This document shows, piece after piece, positions 28,277 to 63,350 of a stretch of 64,000 nucleotides of DNA. The notes beneath the pieces were generated by a model. The model was not told the origin of the DNA. It saw only the letters and a program-made list of their open reading frames with translations, and searched no databases. How positions within the stretch are numbered: position 1 is the first letter of the stretch; each line of letters opens with the position of its first letter. The stretch is taken from IMG/VR virus record IMGVR_UViG_3300035698_032497; one strand, 5' to 3'. Both the position numbers and the translations under genes were made by a program. This stretch comes from a virus (taxonomy: Duplodnaviria > Heunggongvirae > Uroviricota > Caudoviricetes).

Positions 28277-28346
28277 ATCGGCCGTCCAGGGGCACTGCAG
28301 GTCTCCAAAACCCGCGGGCAAAGTTCGATTCTTTGGGCCGGTGCCA
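28277..28346 (+). pseudogene. degenerate tRNA-like element (pseudo-tRNA)
   Basis: Acceptor ATCGGCC/GGCCGGT-G-CCA and T-arm CAAAG-TTCGATT-CTTTG are present, but there is no canonical D/anticodon arm. Confidence 0.3.
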
Positions 28347-49951: not shown

Positions 49952-50039
49952 GGCGTCCTCCATCATCATGGAGGGACAGTGGGGCCGAGCTGGGGTGCCG
50001 AGGGGTCGTGAACAAAGAGCGGTTTTGACACCGCGACTT

Positions 50040-50125
50040 CCTGGGTGTGAACCAAGCGCTCTACTCTGAGCTATCTTTTCTGAAACCTCGGCCGAGCTCT
50101 CGGCCCTTGACTGTACCTCCGTTGA
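50040..50125 (-). ncRNA. degenerate tRNA-Val(CAC)-like structure inside the rsr 5' leader
   Basis: Minus-strand GGTTTCAGAAAAGA-TAGCTCAGAGTAGAGCG-CTTGG-TTCACAC-CCAGG…, followed by the GGCCGAGAGCTCGGCC hairpin. Confidence 0.3.
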
Positions 50126-57128: not shown

Positions 57129-57804
57129 AGCCCTTTAGCTCAGATGGATAGAGCAACGGTCTTTGACTAAAAAGGAGCCCTCTTGTGGAAGATCGAGAAG
57201 ACGGTCAAGAAAGGTGAGTACGTGTACGCGGTCGTTCCTGGGCATCCCAGGGCGATTGAGTTCGGGTACGTTCTATTGCACAGGGTGCTGATGGAGAATC
57301 ACCTGGGAAGACTTCTCGATTCGAATGAGGTCGTACATCATATCGATGATAAGAAGCTCAATAACGATCTGAGCAACCTCGAGGTTCTCGACAAGATAGA
57401 GCACCTCAGAAGACACGCGACCACGGGCAGAGCCATGGTCGAGCTGAGGTGTCCCGAGTGTAGGAAGAGGTTTGCGATCGAGCGTCGGCAGTCGCACTTG
57501 CGCAAGGGGCATGAAGTCACTTGCTGCTCGAGGCGCTGTCGGGGCAGGTTCCACGATAAGATTCGACGTCACGGAAGAACGCAAGAGGTGGAGGATGCTA
57601 TATCGGGGAACATCGTAAGGGAGTTCTGCTCCCTCGACAATCCCGAGGAAACCCACGGCCGTGGGGATCCGTAGAGGCCATACGCGTCCCGCCTGTGACG
57701 GTGAAGAGATGGTCCGGACTACAACACCCTCGTGGTGGTCATGGAAACATGATGTGGTGAAGCTAAACCGTGGGTCCTGGGTTCGAGTCCCGGAAGGGCT
57801 GCCA
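57129..57804 (+). tRNA. tRNA-Gln(TTG) interrupted in the anticodon loop by a ~600-nt intron
   Basis: Exon 1 (~57129..57166) is AGCCCTT-TA-GCTC-AGATGGATA-GAGC-A-ACGGT-CTTTG…. Exon 2 (~57765..57804) is …AA-ACCGT-GGGTC-CTGGG-TTCGAGT-CCCGG-AAGGGCT-G-CCA. The two halves make a perfect 7-bp acceptor and 5-bp anticodon stem. Confidence 0.55.
57183..57674 (+). CDS. HNH homing endonuclease (intron-encoded)
   Basis: VHHIDDKKLNNDLSNLEVLDKIEH (H-N-H) plus a Cys4 cluster; AAAAAGGAG RBS and a TTG start straight after tRNA exon 1. Confidence 0.7.
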   Translation: MWKIEKTVKKGEYVYAVVPGHPRAIEFGYVLLHRVLMENHLGRLLDSNEVVHHIDDKKLNNDLSNLEVLDKIEHLRRHATTGRAMVELRCPECRKRFAIERRQSHLRKGHEVTCCSRRCRGRFHDKIRRHGRTQEVEDAISGNIVREFCSLDNPEETHGRGDP

Positions 57805-57855: not shown

Positions 57856-60396
57856 ATGAGCATCGTCATCTCCATCACGACAGCCCTGATTGCGCACCCA
57901 GACAAGGCCTCCAGGCGGTCTGCGCTTCAGGCGGTGGCTGGACGCTCTGGACTGGATGTCCGGGCGATCATGGGCCGCACTCGGGACGACACGCCGGAGG
58001 GCCTGGTCAAAGAGACCATGGAGAAGGCCCATCGCTGCGCACCGATCTGCGGCGAGATGGTCGAAAGAATGCTCCGTCCTGGGAACATCGGCGTGTTGAA
58101 TGATGACGGTAGCATTGCCATCGACAACCGGAGAAGGGCCGACGTGCTGGCTATGCTCCCGTGGATAGCCAGGAATCTCTGTTCCGAGTACCGCTCTGCC
58201 GAGGAGGGCGTCAAGGACGCGTCTGTCGTCACCTTGTACGGCAAGCTGTGGTCTCCGGCCGGGGGAGGAAAGCGGGGGACCGTTTTTTGGAACATCAGGA
58301 CATGGGAACGGACCAATGGGACGCAGATCGAGTCCATGACCCTCGAGATGGCCATCGAAGCGGTCAAGCTTTGGATCCCCGAGGACGAAGCAGCCTGCCA
58401 TGACGATGACGGCCCGAGTGCGGTAGTCCCCGCGGTGCAGGTGGTCTCCTGGCGAGATGGTGGCCGAATCGACAGGCTGGTGGACTACCGCCAGTTCGCC
58501 GCAGAGGGAAACGCCATGAACCACTGCATCGGCGGCAGTAACCAGGGGACGTGCGAGGCGGACGGCAGGAGTGACTACTGGCAAAAGAGCCGTGACGGTC
58601 AAGGTGGAGCCTTCTCCTACCGCTATGTCGAGCAGCAAAATCCGTACGTATCGGACAGACTCCTCGGGCTTCCCGAAGGCACGATCTGGTTCAGGCTCGA
58701 TCCACTCAGGCTGACCGACGCCTACGGCTTCGACGATCAGGAGATCGAGGATCGGGTCGCCAGGGAGAGGTTGGTTCGGTTCCTGGTCTCGACACCTGGA
58801 GCCCCCCAGGTTCCCATGGTGCTCCGCACGTCACACCTGGAGCCCTTCCGATCCGAGCTTGGTGTTGGGATACCTGTTCACCACGTTGATCTCGACGAAG
58901 AGGACGAGGATCACGACGAGGACGACTACGACGAGGGCAACCATGACGAGGACGACGAGCATCAGGAGCACGGAGTTCCGGGCGCGTTGCCGGCCGACCT
59001 GTTGCCGGAGATGCCCGGGGAGCCAGAAGGCGCTCACGCTGAGATGGTTGCCACGGCAAACCTGGCGTTGACGCAGGCCGTCAACGAGCTGCGGACGCGG
59101 CTCGCACAGGGCATGGCTCCGACCGATGCGCTGGCTGCGCCCTCGGAGGTCGACGTTCCTTTCCCTGGTGGGCCTTATCCGAACTGGTTCATCGTCGTCG
59201 GATGCCTCGAGAGTCTGCTGCGTGGCAGGTTCGGCATCCAGGGACGTAGAGGGGAATACTTCTATCAGCAGAGACCCTGGGACGAAGACGACCCGGCGAT
59301 CTCCATCACGCTCGGCGCGGACGGGACGCAGCACTTCGAGATCGAGTTCGATCCGATCTTCGATCCGTCATCTCAGATCCCGGGCCTCCAGGGCGTTCCG
59401 GTGGTTCCGGCCTGGCTGCGCAACCTTGGCGTTGACAGTGTTGGTGTGAGGTTCGATGTCGATCCAGACAGGGAGCAGCCCACCGACATCCTGCTCGAGG
59501 TCGATCTGTACCGAGGCCCGGACATCATCGAAGAAATGCAGGCGCCGTTGGATGCGTTTTTGGGGCCGTTCGCCGAGAAGTTCACCGAGATCGTGCGTGA
59601 GCGGGGCGATGCCGAAGAAGACGCCGAGATCGAACCCGAGGCCGAAGACGATCTTCCGGCTCCCATCGATCTCTGGCTGATCGATACTGCCACCGGCAGA
59701 ATCGAGGCCTGGGACGATCCACAAAATCCCCACACAGGAGACGATGTTCATGCCCTGGGGCTGGCTCGTCAGGCCGTAGCCGCCGATGCCTGGACGCACC
59801 CCGTCTACAACAGGGTGCAAGCACTCGAGGCTTTGGGCCTCCACGACGGTGGGGATGAGATCGAAGATGACGACGGAGACGTCGACGAGATCGAACAGTT
59901 CGGTGCCGACTACGAGCCCGACGCCGGTTCGGAGCTCCCCGACATCATCCTCGTTCCACCGAACCTGATCTTCGGCGCCAGCCGCAACCTGATGCGAGGT
60001 ATCGGGCACGACAGTCCCTCTGGCCGGGGCACCGCGCTGTTCATCCCGTACCCTGACGAGGAGAACAAAGCGTGGACGATCTCCAGCCGGGACAGGGCCA
60101 TCGAGCTGTACGTGCAGCATGAGCTGCGCGGCAGGGGACCCTGGCCGAGCGAAAACGGAAGCCTCCTGATCATCCTGCCGCACGCCAGCGGATCTCTGCC
60201 GGGTGCGACTCCTCCGGTCGATGTCCTGTTCGCGGAGCTCAACGCCCGCTTCCCGGGCGGTCTGGCCATCGCGCTCGAGGACCTGGACGATCGAATGGTG
60301 GCCAGGTGGCGCAGGACAGCCGAGCGGAACGACATTCCGATCTTCGAGACCGCCTCCGAGGCCATCGAGGACCATCGCGAAGCCGAAGAGGAGTAG
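57856..60396 (+). CDS. large hypothetical protein, GHC-motif paralog family, acidic repeats
   Basis: …VSWRDGGRIDRLVDYRQFAAEGNAMNHCIGG…; DEEDEDHDEDDYDEGNHDEDDEHQEH. Confidence 0.65.
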   Translation: MSIVISITTALIAHPDKASRRSALQAVAGRSGLDVRAIMGRTRDDTPEGLVKETMEKAHRCAPICGEMVERMLRPGNIGVLNDDGSIAIDNRRRADVLAMLPWIARNLCSEYRSAEEGVKDASVVTLYGKLWSPAGGGKRGTVFWNIRTWERTNGTQIESMTLEMAIEAVKLWIPEDEAACHDDDGPSAVVPAVQVVSWRDGGRIDRLVDYRQFAAEGNAMNHCIGGSNQGTCEADGRSDYWQKSRDGQGGAFSYRYVEQQNPYVSDRLLGLPEGTIWFRLDPLRLTDAYGFDDQEIEDRVARERLVRFLVSTPGAPQVPMVLRTSHLEPFRSELGVGIPVHHVDLDEEDEDHDEDDYDEGNHDEDDEHQEHGVPGALPADLLPEMPGEPEGAHAEMVATANLALTQAVNELRTRLAQGMAPTDALAAPSEVDVPFPGGPYPNWFIVVGCLESLLRGRFGIQGRRGEYFYQQRPWDEDDPAISITLGADGTQHFEIEFDPIFDPSSQIPGLQGVPVVPAWLRNLGVDSVGVRFDVDPDREQPTDILLEVDLYRGPDIIEEMQAPLDAFLGPFAEKFTEIVRERGDAEEDAEIEPEAEDDLPAPIDLWLIDTATGRIEAWDDPQNPHTGDDVHALGLARQAVAADAWTHPVYNRVQALEALGLHDGGDEIEDDDGDVDEIEQFGADYEPDAGSELPDIILVPPNLIFGASRNLMRGIGHDSPSGRGTALFIPYPDEENKAWTISSRDRAIELYVQHELRGRGPWPSENGSLLIILPHASGSLPGATPPVDVLFAELNARFPGGLAIALEDLDDRMVARWRRTAERNDIPIFETASEAIEDHREAEEE

Positions 60397-61805: not shown

Positions 61806-62044
61806 CTACCCAGCTACAGCGCATCGTCTGGAGACAGCGGGTGATGGCTATTGGGGCCACGAACTACCTGCTGAAGTTCTACATCCTCTTCGGGCGCAAG
61901 GAGCGTCTGACCTGTCCTTCCATCATCGGACTACCACTGAGGCTTCGGATGAGGCTATGGAAGCACGAGAAGGACAACCCCGTCACCGTCAGGGAGTTCA
62001 GCAACTATGGAACAAGGCGACAGACCAGCCCCGAACCGGGGTGA
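61802..62044 (+). CDS. small hypothetical protein
   Basis: ATGA overlap. Confidence 0.35.
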   Translation: MTTQLQRIVWRQRVMAIGATNYLLKFYILFGRKERLTCPSIIGLPLRLRMRLWKHEKDNPVTVREFSNYGTRRQTSPEPG

Positions 62045-62588
62045 GCCCAAGCAGGTGATCGTGATCCGGATGAAGTATCCGGACGCTGATGGCAAGCTGC
62101 GCAAGCTGCGCTTCGGCAAGCTGGCAGCACAGGTGGCTCACGCCTCGAACGCGACGCTGCTCGATCGCAAGATCGAGTTCCTCGACAAAGACGGTGAGCT
62201 CATCCCCATCAGGGGCGTGATGCTCGAGCCGACCAAGGCGGACATCGCAGAGATGACCGGGTCTTGCTCCATGCCGGACGCCGGAAACGTCGTCTTCGAG
62301 GGAGACAGGGTGTGGCCCATGATGCTGCTGCTGACCAAACCCATGGACACATGGTCCAGGGTCCGCTTCAAGAAGATCGTCCTGGTAGCCGACACCGAGG
62401 AGCAGCTGGTCAGGATCCACGAGCTCGCGCTCGAGCGAGGGCTCCCTACGGCGCTCATCGAGGACCACGGGCTCACGGAGTTCCACGGGGTCAAGACCAA
62501 GACCGCGGTCGGCATCGGGCCGGCCGAGCCAGAGCTCATCGACGAGATCACCGGGCCGGACGGCCTGGTCCCATGCAGGCTCGCATAG
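62007..62588 (+). CDS. peptidyl-tRNA hydrolase, PTH2 family
   Basis: KQVIVIRMKYPD…GKLAAQVAHAS and KIVLVADTEEQLVRIHELALERGLPTALIEDHGLTEF…TAVGIGP match the two conserved PTH2 blocks. Confidence 0.7.
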   Translation: MEQGDRPAPNRGEPKQVIVIRMKYPDADGKLRKLRFGKLAAQVAHASNATLLDRKIEFLDKDGELIPIRGVMLEPTKADIAEMTGSCSMPDAGNVVFEGDRVWPMMLLLTKPMDTWSRVRFKKIVLVADTEEQLVRIHELALERGLPTALIEDHGLTEFHGVKTKTAVGIGPAEPELIDEITGPDGLVPCRLA

Positions 62589-63260: not shown

Positions 63261-63350
63261 CGGGCAGTAGCGCAGCATGGTAGCGCACCAGTTCGGGGTA
63301 CTGGGGGTCGCGGCTCCTGCGGAGCGCGTTGAGTCCCGCCTGCCCGACCA
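63261..63350 (+). tRNA. tRNA-Pro(GGG)-like with unusual extra hairpin in the variable region
   Basis: Anticodon arm CCAGT-TCGGGGT-ACTGG, then a GCGGCTCC-TGC-GGAGCG hairpin before the T-arm. Confidence 0.4.

Follow-up and report, generated by a model that had tools for sequence, protein, structure and literature searches.

A predicted HNH-encoding group I intron interrupting tRNA-Arg(UCU) in a large phage-like element

In the 64,000-nucleotide stretch of DNA analysed here (the window), two halves of a tRNA gene lie about 600 nt apart, as the initial annotation had observed, at 57129-57163 and 57763-57804, with an HNH reading frame between them. The locus raises the question whether these halves are the exons of a tRNA interrupted by an intron, and of which tRNA, or whether they are the remains of a gene disrupted by a free-standing HNH gene. 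Sequence analysis makes it very probable that a mobile group I intron sits between U34 and C35 of a tRNA-Arg(UCU) gene, in a large phage-like element.

The split tRNA, its carrier and its splice junction

Exactly one split tRNA was called in the window by using ARAGORN in intron mode. Because about 0.2 such calls per 64 kb arise in shuffled sequence, the call is weak on its own, and the beyond-chance status of the split tRNA and its intron rests on a covariance-model match with an E-value of about 1e-38, described in the next section. An independent assembly (L246) contains the locus with 100% identity; a near-identity DNA search, performed with the 3-kb locus against GenBank phages, gave no match, and an exact 30-mer taken from the window does not occur in IMG/VR.

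The window appears phage-like on gene content. Among the genes of the genome are those for a bacterial-type DnaE, a Dda-like helicase, a protein with a tail lysozyme/SLT domain and a class II tRNA-Tyr. PHROG scans of ten neighbouring ORFs identified only a DNA methyltransferase, and the window yielded no structural phage gene. An archaeal virus carrying a bulge-helix-bulge intron had been considered, since the neighbouring proteins are acidic and the HNH N-terminus has a 42% match in Halobacterium phage phiH. This candidate was rejected on the bacterial character of the genes listed above and of all 117 genomes in which the ribozyme was found; moreover, no canonical helix-bulge-helix-bulge-helix can be recognized by eye at the junctions. 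A group II intron was also rejected, since neither a reverse transcriptase nor an Rfam group II match was found.

The splice junction is assigned as ...GGUCUU/intron...GAAG/CUAAACC, and the elements that define it are the following.

57129-57163, + strand: exon 1 of tRNA-Arg(UCU), comprising the acceptor 5' strand, the D-arm (A20), the anticodon stem 5' strand and C32 U33 U34; from ARAGORN intron mode
57161-57163, + strand: P1 5' strand, exon C32 U33 U34, pairing with G57175 A57176 G57177; 100% paired in 30 sequences
57164-57762, + strand: predicted group I intron, 599 nt; from junctions, helix covariation and covariance model
57173-57177, + strand: internal guide sequence AG/GAG; GAG pairs with exon 1 (P1), AG with the 5' dinucleotide of exon 2 (P10)
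57762, + strand: omega-G, last intron nucleotide and 3' splice site; invariant G in 30/30 aligned introns
57763-57804, + strand: exon 2 of tRNA-Arg(UCU), comprising C35 U36 A37 A38, the anticodon stem 3' strand, the variable loop, the T-arm, the acceptor 3' strand, G73 and an encoded CCA

Joined, the exons form a perfect cloverleaf of 77 nt, reported as Arg(tct) by ARAGORN, with CUUCUAA as its 7-nt anticodon loop. A loop of this length can be obtained with three junctions, which correspond to Arg UCU, Lys UUU and Gln UUG, and the last of these had been preferred in the initial annotation. For a tRNA-Gln(UUG) or a tRNA-Lys(UUU) the junction would lie 1-3 nt further 3'; all three cloverleaves are acceptable to ARAGORN, and a sister intron does occupy a Lys(UUU)-type tRNA (L080, L247). 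Only CUU/...G/CUAA, however, obeys the group I rules: U34 (57163) forms a U.G wobble with G57175 at the 5' splice site, the intron ends in omega-G, and P10 (57173-74 with 57763-64, 100% paired) aligns the 3' exon. With the other junctions the intron would end in A or C, not in G, and the P1 U.G and P10 pairings, held in 30/30 sequences, would be broken. The same arrangement, CTT/...G/CTAA, is common to 96 related loci.

Covariation of the guide with the exons agrees with this junction. P1 is only 3 bp long, and one of its pairs switches from C:G to U:A in a copy located within a tRNA-Glu (L053), where the guide ATG/GAA faces UUU/CAU, while TAG/GAG faces CUU/CUA in the tRNA-Arg copies; in copies inserted at 36/37 the guide is TTGGAC, for UCU/AA. 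An alternative guide located inside the ORF (GAAGATCG, 57188-95, pairing with CGGTCTTT), which would move the splice site to the 3' side of U35, was rejected, since it clashes with omega-G and with the 7-nt loop, and shows no covariation.

The body of the tRNA was evaluated by using A20, C35 and G/A73 as marks of arginine identity. The split tRNA has A20 and G73, which are present in all three of the local Arg tRNAs; in the Lys and Gln tRNAs of the window, position 73 is A. The exon-1 D-arm of the split tRNA is identical to that of the tRNA-Arg(GCG) of the same window, and its closest E. coli tRNA is a tRNA-Arg. On the junction, on the pairing and covariation of P1 and P10, and on the Arg-type body, the Gln(UUG) anticodon appears to be a misreading, and either a Gln or a Lys identity is very improbable. 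AGA and AGG together account for 38% of the Arg codons in the long ORFs of the window, and no other tRNA decoding them was found within its 64 kb.

The ribozyme core and its covariation

A covariance model (R1) was trained solely on 16 ORF-less introns of bacterial chromosomal tRNA-Arg(UCU) genes. Searched against the 64-kb window, it produced a single match, at 57589-57761 (+), covering the model from position 1 to 181 of 181, with a score of 133.7 bits and E=1.2e-38. Members of the family score between 114 and 163 bits with R1, and the other members of the L2 type, to which the window copy belongs, between 122 and 142.

The helix model (P1, P10 and P2-P9) was evaluated on a whole-intron alignment of 30 introns (A1). 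Paired bases occupy 92.0% of the cells; shuffles give 72.4%, none out of 500 being as high as the real alignment, and sliding the partners lowers the figure to 35-43%. Both sides change in 41 of the 65 pairs. The alignment has a covariation score of 0.532, while shuffled controls score 0.173 and slid ones 0.08-0.12. P1, P10, P2, P3, P4, P6, P7, P8 and P9b are 99-100% paired and every core helix shows compensatory changes, while P5a, P6a and P9a are variable peripheral elements. The covariation thereby supports a conserved P3-P4-P5-P6-P7-P8-P9 core, with the P3/P7 pseudoknot, whose elements are located as follows.

57179-57185, + strand: P2 5' strand CCTCTTG, pairing with 57582-57588; 99% paired, 7/7 pairs change on both sides
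57582-57588, + strand: P2 3' strand CAAGAGG, pairing with 57179-57185
57593-57598, + strand: P3 5' strand GGATGC, pairing with 57684-57689; 100% paired, 5/6 pairs change on both sides
57603-57646, + strand: P4-P5-P5a domain, with P4 at 57603-08/57641-46 (100% paired), P5 at 57613-15/57635-37 and P5a at 57619-23/57629-33; layout according to the Rfam alignment of a relative (L004)
57647-57670, + strand: P6 (57647-48/57669-70; 100% paired, with a G-C to C-G switch) and P6a hairpin (57652-58/57659-65; length varies)
57674-57680, + strand: P7 5' strand G-A(bulge)-GGCCA, predicted guanosine-binding helix, pairing with 57710-57715 (TGGTCC); 100% paired
57684-57689, + strand: P3 3' strand GCGTCC, pairing with 57593-57598
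57690-57703, + strand: P8 hairpin CGCC/GGTG with a 6-nt loop; 100% paired, 3/4 pairs change on both sides
57704-57715, + strand: J8/7 AAGAGA and P7 3' strand TGGTCC; nearly invariant across the family
57718-57758, + strand: P9 (57718-22/57754-58; 96% paired), enclosing P9a (57725-28/57734-37) and P9b (57739-43/57748-52; GAAA tetraloop, 100% paired, 5/5 pairs change on both sides)

P7, in which G57674, the bulged A57675 and G57676-A57680 face 57710-15, is predicted to bind guanosine; it forms a pseudoknot with P3 and is the counterpart of AGACUA/UAGUC in the Rfam consensus, to which J8/7 can also be aligned, through L004, AAGAGA corresponding to AAGAUA. Judged by eye, the architecture is IC-like, with P3' abutting P8, no P7.1/7.2 and a GAAA loop in P9b, and the subgroup looks IC3-like.

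A search with the Rfam Intron_gpI and group II models, suggested in the initial annotation as a check, was performed on the window: no relevant match was obtained at gathering, nor at E<=10 over 951 nt and over 251 nt. At gathering, RF00028 (Intron_gpI) also matched none of 12 ORF-less relatives. On the homologous region of L004, a 62%-identical relative, the same model aligns end to end (1-253), with 47.5 bits and E=6e-11. The gathering threshold of 50 bits, missed by the window and, just barely, by L004, is the detection limit of one generic model and not a biochemical criterion, and the Rfam check alone would have misled about the intron.

The missing Rfam match is what would be expected of a tRNA pseudogene, disrupted by a free-standing HNH gene and containing no ribozyme, the outcome set against the intron in the initial annotation; free-standing HNH genes are, besides, common in phages. 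Such a pseudogene is hard to reconcile with the match to a family-specific model at E=1e-38, with compensatory changes in every core helix, with two exons both intact and conserved, and with more than 100 genomes in which ORF-less copies occupy that same position of the tRNA. By covariation and the R1 match it is already refuted, as far as sequences can tell, and its probability is close to nil. The group I intron in a tRNA anticodon loop, with its HNH gene, as originally proposed, is in turn borne out by the R1 match, by helix covariation and by the RF00028 alignment of the relative.

The HNH reading frame and its overlap with the ribozyme

57183-57674, + strand: HNH_3 homing-endonuclease ORF, 163 aa, its body in the P2 loop; from Pfam and PHROG

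The 163-aa HNH frame of the initial annotation matches Pfam HNH_3 (PF13392) above gathering (42.5 bits, cut-off 24.8, E=5e-11), as well as PHROG HNH endonuclease families (8e-22). The frame is uninterrupted and of full length, with a conserved HH...N...N...H motif and conserved CxxC/CSxxC cysteines; among 16 homologs, no variation is seen at H52, H53, N61, N65, H74 and H78. A PDB sequence search returned spurious zinc-finger similarity only, and no close solved structure.

The strong ribosome binding site described upstream of the frame corresponds to a Shine-Dalgarno-like AGGAG, whose bases, however, are at the same time those of the internal guide sequence. The start codon, TTG (57183-57185), sits in the P2 5' strand, the last 31 codons (57582-57674, 93 nt) traverse P2', P3, P4, P5, P5a and P6, and the stop codon, TAG, is found within the conserved CGTAGAGGCC (J6/7-P7). 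The concern that about 100 nt of non-coding sequence would be too short for a group I core therefore falls away, because the ribozyme overlaps the last 31 codons, and the guide and P2 5' strand overlap the ribosome binding site and start codon; from P2' to omega-G (about 57582-57762), the ribozyme measures roughly 180 nt.

One of the two functions encoded by the 93-nt overlap could be compromised. Taken further, the intron might be of group I by descent and now splice inefficiently, being either crippled by the ORF or dependent on a host factor, so that little functional tRNA, or effectively none, would be obtained from the tRNA-Arg(UCU) gene; the double use of these 93 nt and the variability of P5a, P6a and P9a are compatible with this. 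Decay of this kind is nevertheless improbable, given that the window copy scores on par with other L2-type members under a model derived from bacterial chromosomal copies, that all core helices pair and invariant positions are retained, and that the exons form a perfect cloverleaf. The heavy use of AGA and AGG, with no other decoder in the window, and the identical sequence of the independent assembly weigh in the same direction.

An active group I intron, as its established biology suggests, would fold into a standard core after transcription. GAG (57175-77) would pair with C32-U33-U34 to form P1, with the U.G wobble at the splice site, and an external guanosine, bound in P7, would attack after U34. 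AG (57173-74) would then align exon 2 via P10, and the free 3'-OH of U34 would attack after omega-G (57762), ligating the exons into the 77-nt tRNA. Like other HNH enzymes encoded in introns, the HNH protein may cut or nick intron-less tRNA-Arg(UCU) DNA near the insertion site, repair copying the intron into the cut allele (homing). Because the ribosome binding site is the guide, the start codon lies in P2 and the last 31 codons form P2'-P6, endonuclease translation and RNA folding and splicing would be mutually exclusive; these overlapping codes offer a testable competition between translation and ribozyme folding.

Relatives and comparison with known systems

The same ribozyme family was found in at least 117 bacterial genomes, no genome match being other than bacterial, and in several large phage contigs. 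At least 8 other large viral contigs contain group I introns in phage tRNA genes, among them a published 484-kb genome (LR756508.1). A 14-mer scan of IMG/VR for relatives gave mostly chance matches, and its results were filtered by BLAST. HNH homologs (74%, 62% and 56% identity), from unrelated genomes of 40-62% GC, are located at the same position within split tRNAs. The intron is found with and without an ORF, the ORF-less versions measuring 175-260 nt, in Arg(UCU), Lys(UUU) and Glu(UUC) tRNAs; in L080, one of the Lys-type copies, the ORF has decayed. With three tRNA species, two positions within tRNA-Arg(UCU) and three endonuclease families (HNH_3 in L2, PD-(D/E)XK or LAGLIDADG in the P6 loop), the family is good material for the study of recombination and retargeting between introns and homing genes. 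The initially suggested comparison with intron-less alleles of related phages found none for this phage lineage: sought through the 846-aa neighbour, an intron-less sister allele did not turn up in IMG/VR, and one truncated metagenome fragment only was retrieved.

Large phages might conceivably be the carriers that move the family, within their own tRNA genes, between bacterial phyla, although this is rather doubtful. During infection, the HNH protein would cut the intron-less tRNA-Arg(UCU) gene of the host, seeding the intron into bacterial chromosomes and harming AGA/AGG decoding, while the phage copy would be immune and would supply the phage's own AGA/AGG-rich genes. In that case, the overlap of guide and ribosome binding site could act as a timer between endonuclease and tRNA production.

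The intron is a classical kind of mobile element, whose host, a phage tRNA gene, and layout are missed by standard annotation tools. Because neither tRNA finders in default mode nor the single group I model of Rfam detect the locus, tRNA-Arg(UCU) seems absent and the HNH gene looks free-standing.

The closest known systems are the introns of bacterial tRNA-Arg(UCU) genes, which share with the window the ribozyme family, the host gene and the insertion in the anticodon loop. They are described in Beggiatoa and Thiomargarita (PMC4853749, citing MacGregor 2013) and, with PD-(D/E)XK endonucleases, in Bacteroidota and Campylobacterota (PMC13011429). They reside, however, in cellular chromosomes, and their ORF, if any, is a PDDEXK_5 or LAGLIDADG one, placed between P5 and P7 (P6 loop), whereas the window has a phage-like carrier and an HNH_3 ORF in the P2 loop, overlapping the core. 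Thiomargarita-type copies are inserted at 36/37, the window intron at 34/35.

The IC3 introns of Azoarcus tRNA-Ile(CAU) and cyanobacterial tRNA-Leu(UAA) are small self-splicing introns, likewise inserted in a tRNA anticodon loop. Their P1 is short, with about 3 exon base pairs, the region of P9 contains a GAAA tetraloop, and they are not known to have P7.1/P7.2. Unlike the window intron, with its HNH ORF, the Azoarcus and Anabaena introns interrupt a different tRNA and carry no ORF; the tRNA-Leu intron, too, is inserted at 34/35 (PMC13011429). The I-Ssp6803I intron of cyanobacterial tRNA-fMet combines an anticodon-loop group I intron with a homing endonuclease specific for the tRNA gene, as is predicted for the window, but the enzyme belongs to the PD-(D/E)XK family, the position is 33/34 and the host is cellular, against HNH_3, 34/35 and a phage-like carrier in the window.

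The phage introns of I-HmuI (SPO1), I-BasI (Bastille), I-TwoI (Twort) and I-PfoP3I (PMC3428280) also associate a group I intron with an HNH homing (nicking) endonuclease, and, as is predicted for the window, ORF expression is entangled with ribozyme structure. These introns interrupt protein-coding genes, whereas that of the window interrupts a phage tRNA gene and encodes an HNH of the Pfam HNH_3 type. According to a 2014 review, every phage intron known at that time interrupted a protein-coding gene, although tRNA genes are numerous in phages (PMC3984707); phage tRNA introns fill this gap, stated by the field itself.

The split tRNA gene and its anticodon

With introns allowed, ARAGORN reported a single split tRNA in the window, a tRNA-Arg(tct) at 57129-57804 with a 599-nt intron, at a position where no tRNA gene is reported by default ARAGORN or by the Rfam tRNA model. 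The call alone is suggestive only, because the same intron mode gave 4 split-tRNA calls on 1.28 Mb of block-shuffled window sequence, or about 0.2 per window. Both halves proposed in the initial annotation were confirmed, and the tRNA-plus-intron sequence is 100% identical in L246, from an independent metagenome assembly.

57129-57163, +: tRNA 5' part (acceptor strand AGCCCTT, D-arm, anticodon stem ACGGT, then CTT)
57763-57804, +: tRNA 3' part (CTAA, ACCGT, 5-nt variable loop, T-arm, AAGGGCT, G, CCA)

A 7-nt anticodon loop can be obtained from three junctions (marked here by a slash), all accepted by ARAGORN: CUU/CUAA (Arg UCU), CUUU/UAA (Lys UUU) and CUUUG(A)/A(A) (Gln UUG). The body of the tRNA is of the Arg type: its D-arm, TAGCTCAGATGGATAGAGCA, recurs unchanged in tRNA-Arg(GCG) of the window, A20 is present, G73 is the discriminator here and in all three local Arg tRNAs (A73 in the local Lys and Gln tRNAs), and the closest match in E. 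coli carries a tRNA-Arg annotation. Since, in addition, exon 1 ends in U and the intron in G at the Arg junction only, the gene was assigned to Arg(UCU). The Gln(UUG) anticodon originally proposed is wrong on this evidence, and the Lys(UUU) reading, kept as its fallback, is ruled out by the same Arg-type body and Arg-only junction ends.

A group I intron overlapped by its HNH gene

The 163-aa ORF lying between the tRNA halves (57183-57674, TTG start) had been described as an HNH endonuclease, and this was borne out by matches to Pfam HNH_3, above the curated cut-off, and to several PHROG HNH-endonuclease families. About 90 metagenome homologs, mostly full length, share 50-74% identity with the protein. 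The three fetched with their context, which include a syntenic 62%-GC relative (L001-3) and an unrelated 40%-GC phage-like contig (L005-7), all lie within split tRNAs. GC content differs between these sequences, yet over their final ~180 nt the inserts are near-identical in long stretches (GCTATATCGGGGAAC, CGACAATCCCGAG, CGTAGAGGCCATACGC, GGTGAAGAGATGGTCC), and the hairpins between these stretches differ by compensatory changes.

A check of the insert with Rfam intron models, suggested in the initial annotation, gave no group I or group II match in the window at gathering, nor at E<=10 on 951-nt and 251-nt slices. RF00028, Rfam's single group I model, aligns full length (1-253) to the homologous region of a relative, L004, at 47.5 bits (E=6e-11), just below its gathering score of 50 bits; this is its top score among ribozyme family members, and 12 of 12 ORF-less relatives were missed at the gathering score. 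With respect to this family, the model has a systematic annotation blind spot. The helix map was taken from the RF00028 alignment of L004, and is reported below in window coordinates.

57161-63 with 57175-77, +: P1, U34.G57175 at the splice site
57173-74 with 57763-64, +: P10
57179-85 with 57582-88, +: P2, ORF body in its loop, L2
57593-98 with 57684-89, +: P3
57603-08 with 57641-46, +: P4
57613-15 with 57635-37, +: P5
57619-23 with 57629-33, +: P5a
57647-48 with 57669-70, +: P6
57652-58 with 57659-65, +: P6a
57674 and 57676-80 with 57710-15, +: P7, A57675 bulged
57690-93 with 57700-03, +: P8
57704-09, +: J8/7, joining segment
57718-22 with 57754-58, +: P9
57725-28 with 57734-37, +: P9a
57739-43 with 57748-52, +: P9b, GAAA loop
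57762, +: omega-G, last intron nucleotide

The model was projected from window coordinates onto an alignment of 30 introns, and pairs were then counted. The alignment comprised the window intron, from which only the ORF body was removed, 20 natural ORF-less bacterial introns, two ORF-less viral introns (L022, L053) and seven ORF-bearing introns edited likewise. Standard pairs occupied 92.0% of the cells, compared with 72.4% after shuffling and 35-43% when partners were slid by 1-3 columns; the corresponding covariation scores were 0.532, 0.173 and 0.08-0.12. Both-sided changes were found in 41 of the 65 pairs, and none of 500 shuffles reached any observed pairing or covariation measure. Pairing is at 99-100% in P1, P10, P2, P3, P4, P6, P7, P8 and P9b. 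Alignment is less clean in the peripheral hairpins P5a, P6a and P9a, which differ in length between introns.

A covariance model, R1, was trained on 16 bacterial chromosomal ORF-less introns only, with no viral, window or edited sequence. Its single match in the 64-kb window, at 57589-57761 (+), covers the full model (133.7 bits, E=1.2e-38), and all other family members score 114-163 bits. This match and the covariation bear out the initial claim of a group I intron in the anticodon loop; by sequence, fold, family membership and covariation, the insert is shown to belong to this class.

The concern that ~100 nt of non-coding RNA would be too short for such an intron is resolved by the overlap of the ORF with the guide sequence, P2 and P2'-P6. 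The ribosome binding site claimed for the ORF is present as a Shine-Dalgarno-like AGGAG, the same bases forming the intron guide sequence, and the 5' strand of P2 holds the TTG start codon. The last 31 codons (QEVEDAISGNIVREF...DNPEETHGRGDP) read through P2'-P3-P4-P5-P6, down to a TAG stop within the conserved CGTAGAGGCC; the C-terminal peptide conserved in the HNH protein family, AISGN(I/L)VRE..DNPE, is therefore encoded by the ribozyme core. As the binding site falls on P1/P10, the start codon on P2, and 93 nt of coding sequence on P2'-P6, translation and splicing of any one RNA molecule are probably mutually exclusive.

Targets and endonucleases of the ribozyme family

A core-motif scan of public collections located the ribozyme in 7 IMG/VR viral contigs (64-262 kb) and in at least 117 bacterial genome contigs, from Acidobacteriota, Thiotrichales, Bacteroidota, Chloroflexota, Rhodothermia and other groups. 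The junction CTT/...G/CTAA, corresponding to tRNA-Arg(UCU) interrupted at 34/35, occurs at 96 loci, CTT/...G/TTAA (Lys(UUU)-type tRNA) at 6, and CCTTCT/...G/AAGCC (Arg(UCU) at 36/37) at 18. In one viral copy (L053, IMG/VR 64-kb contig, about 411-711 of the extracted stretch) the interrupted gene is tRNA-Glu(UUC). Arg copies have the guide TAG/GAG opposite exons CUU/CUA, the Glu copy ATG/GAA opposite UUU/CAU, and 36/37 copies TTGGAC opposite UCU/AA; as guide and exons change together, the splice junction is fixed independently of the tRNA arguments. The guide change in the Glu copy is suggestive of a switch to a new tRNA target. Thiomargarita/Beggiatoa-type copies (L133, L148, L150, L153, L154, L157, L161, L176-L178 and others) lie at 36/37 of tRNA-Arg(UCU), not at 34/35, with this TTGGAC guide and R1 scores of 145-163 bits.

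GenBank, searched with the ribozyme core, yielded one record, LR756508.1 (L247), an unannotated 484-kb uncultured huge phage in which two neighbouring tRNAs are each split by an ORF-less family intron.

976-1244: split tRNA-Lys(UUU), R1 125 bits
1375-1626: split tRNA-Arg(UCU), R1 114 bits

Intron length has a bimodal distribution, with 195-452 nt for ORF-less and 545-706 nt for ORF-bearing copies. An HNH_3 gene in L2 was found in the window, L001-7, L004, L030, L088/L043 and one Blastocatellia chromosome (L236, a 1.3-Mb MAG contig, with an intact 171-aa HNH). In L080/L025, from large viral contigs with a Lys(UUU)-type tRNA, the HNH ORF is full of stop codons and the ribozyme is intact (R1 126 bits), as expected for a homing gene at the decay stage. 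Long bacterial chromosomal introns have P1-P4 intact at the 5' end and an ORF between P5 and P7, which is PDDEXK_5 (E=2e-39) or LAGLIDADG; this arrangement, in the P6 region and with no HNH in P2, was seen in L130, L132, L162, L212 and ~30 other bacterial loci, in agreement with the PD-(D/E)XK genes described in tRNA-Arg(UCU) introns by a 2026 survey (PMC13011429). One ribozyme family thus carries three endonuclease families, HNH_3 in P2 versus PDDEXK_5 or LAGLIDADG in P6.

Carrier element, proposed mechanism and known introns

The window encodes a bacterial-type DnaE, UDG, DNA methyltransferases, an ArdC-like protein, a Dda-like helicase related to bacteriophage proteins only, a tail-lysozyme/SLT domain protein and a PTH2 peptidyl-tRNA hydrolase, together with 31 tRNAs in four clusters. 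No structural gene was found within it, and its sequence was not found in IMG/VR or among GenBank phages. From this gene content, the carrier is most likely a large bacteriophage. Three features point to a bacterial host: the tRNA-Tyr is of class II, the lysozyme domain is directed at murein, and the ribozyme has a purely bacterial distribution.

Other features of the window were recorded. The PTH2-type gene (62007-62588, Pfam 2e-20) lies immediately upstream of the tRNA cluster at 62.6-64 kb. The neighbouring 846-aa protein (57856-60396) has a long Asp/Glu/His-rich low-complexity stretch, no recognisable domain, and one distant relative fragment only in metagenomes. Three tRNAs are unusual: tRNA-Pro(GGG) (63261-63350), at 90 nt, seems to contain an insertion within or close to the T-arm; tRNA-Trp (28277-28346) has just 70 nt and its anticodon at position 29; and an Rfam tRNA match at 50011-50080 (-; 42.5 bits) is not called by ARAGORN.

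By the known biology of group I introns (reviewed in PMC3984707), splicing would start with guanosine attack after U34, and a second step after omega-G, guided by P10, would free a 77-nt tRNA-Arg(UCU). By analogy with other intron-encoded HNH enzymes, the HNH protein may cleave or nick intron-less alleles, and homing would follow. The element probably needs this tRNA, since AGA and AGG together account for 38% of the Arg codons in 14 long window ORFs, in an element of 61% GC, and are read by no other window tRNA.

The anticodon loop of bacterial tRNAs is a classical site for group I introns, and the ribozyme family and mechanism are ordinary. A 2014 review placed all phage introns then known in protein-coding genes, although phages have many tRNA genes (PMC3984707). 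No later report of a group I intron in a phage tRNA gene was found in the literature searched, whose coverage is incomplete, and an earlier description elsewhere is possible; the closest item is a Vibrio phage "tRNA-Stop interrupted by ~2.5 kb", left unexplained (PMC5746245). Introns in tRNA-Arg(UCU) are on record for Beggiatoa and Thiomargarita (PMC4853749), and a survey of complete genomes that covered them found homing genes in just 12 of 333 tRNA introns (PMC13011429). What is noteworthy here is a split tRNA/intron locus missed by standard tools, a phage tRNA as host gene, and an HNH_3 gene nested in P2 that extensively overlaps the core.
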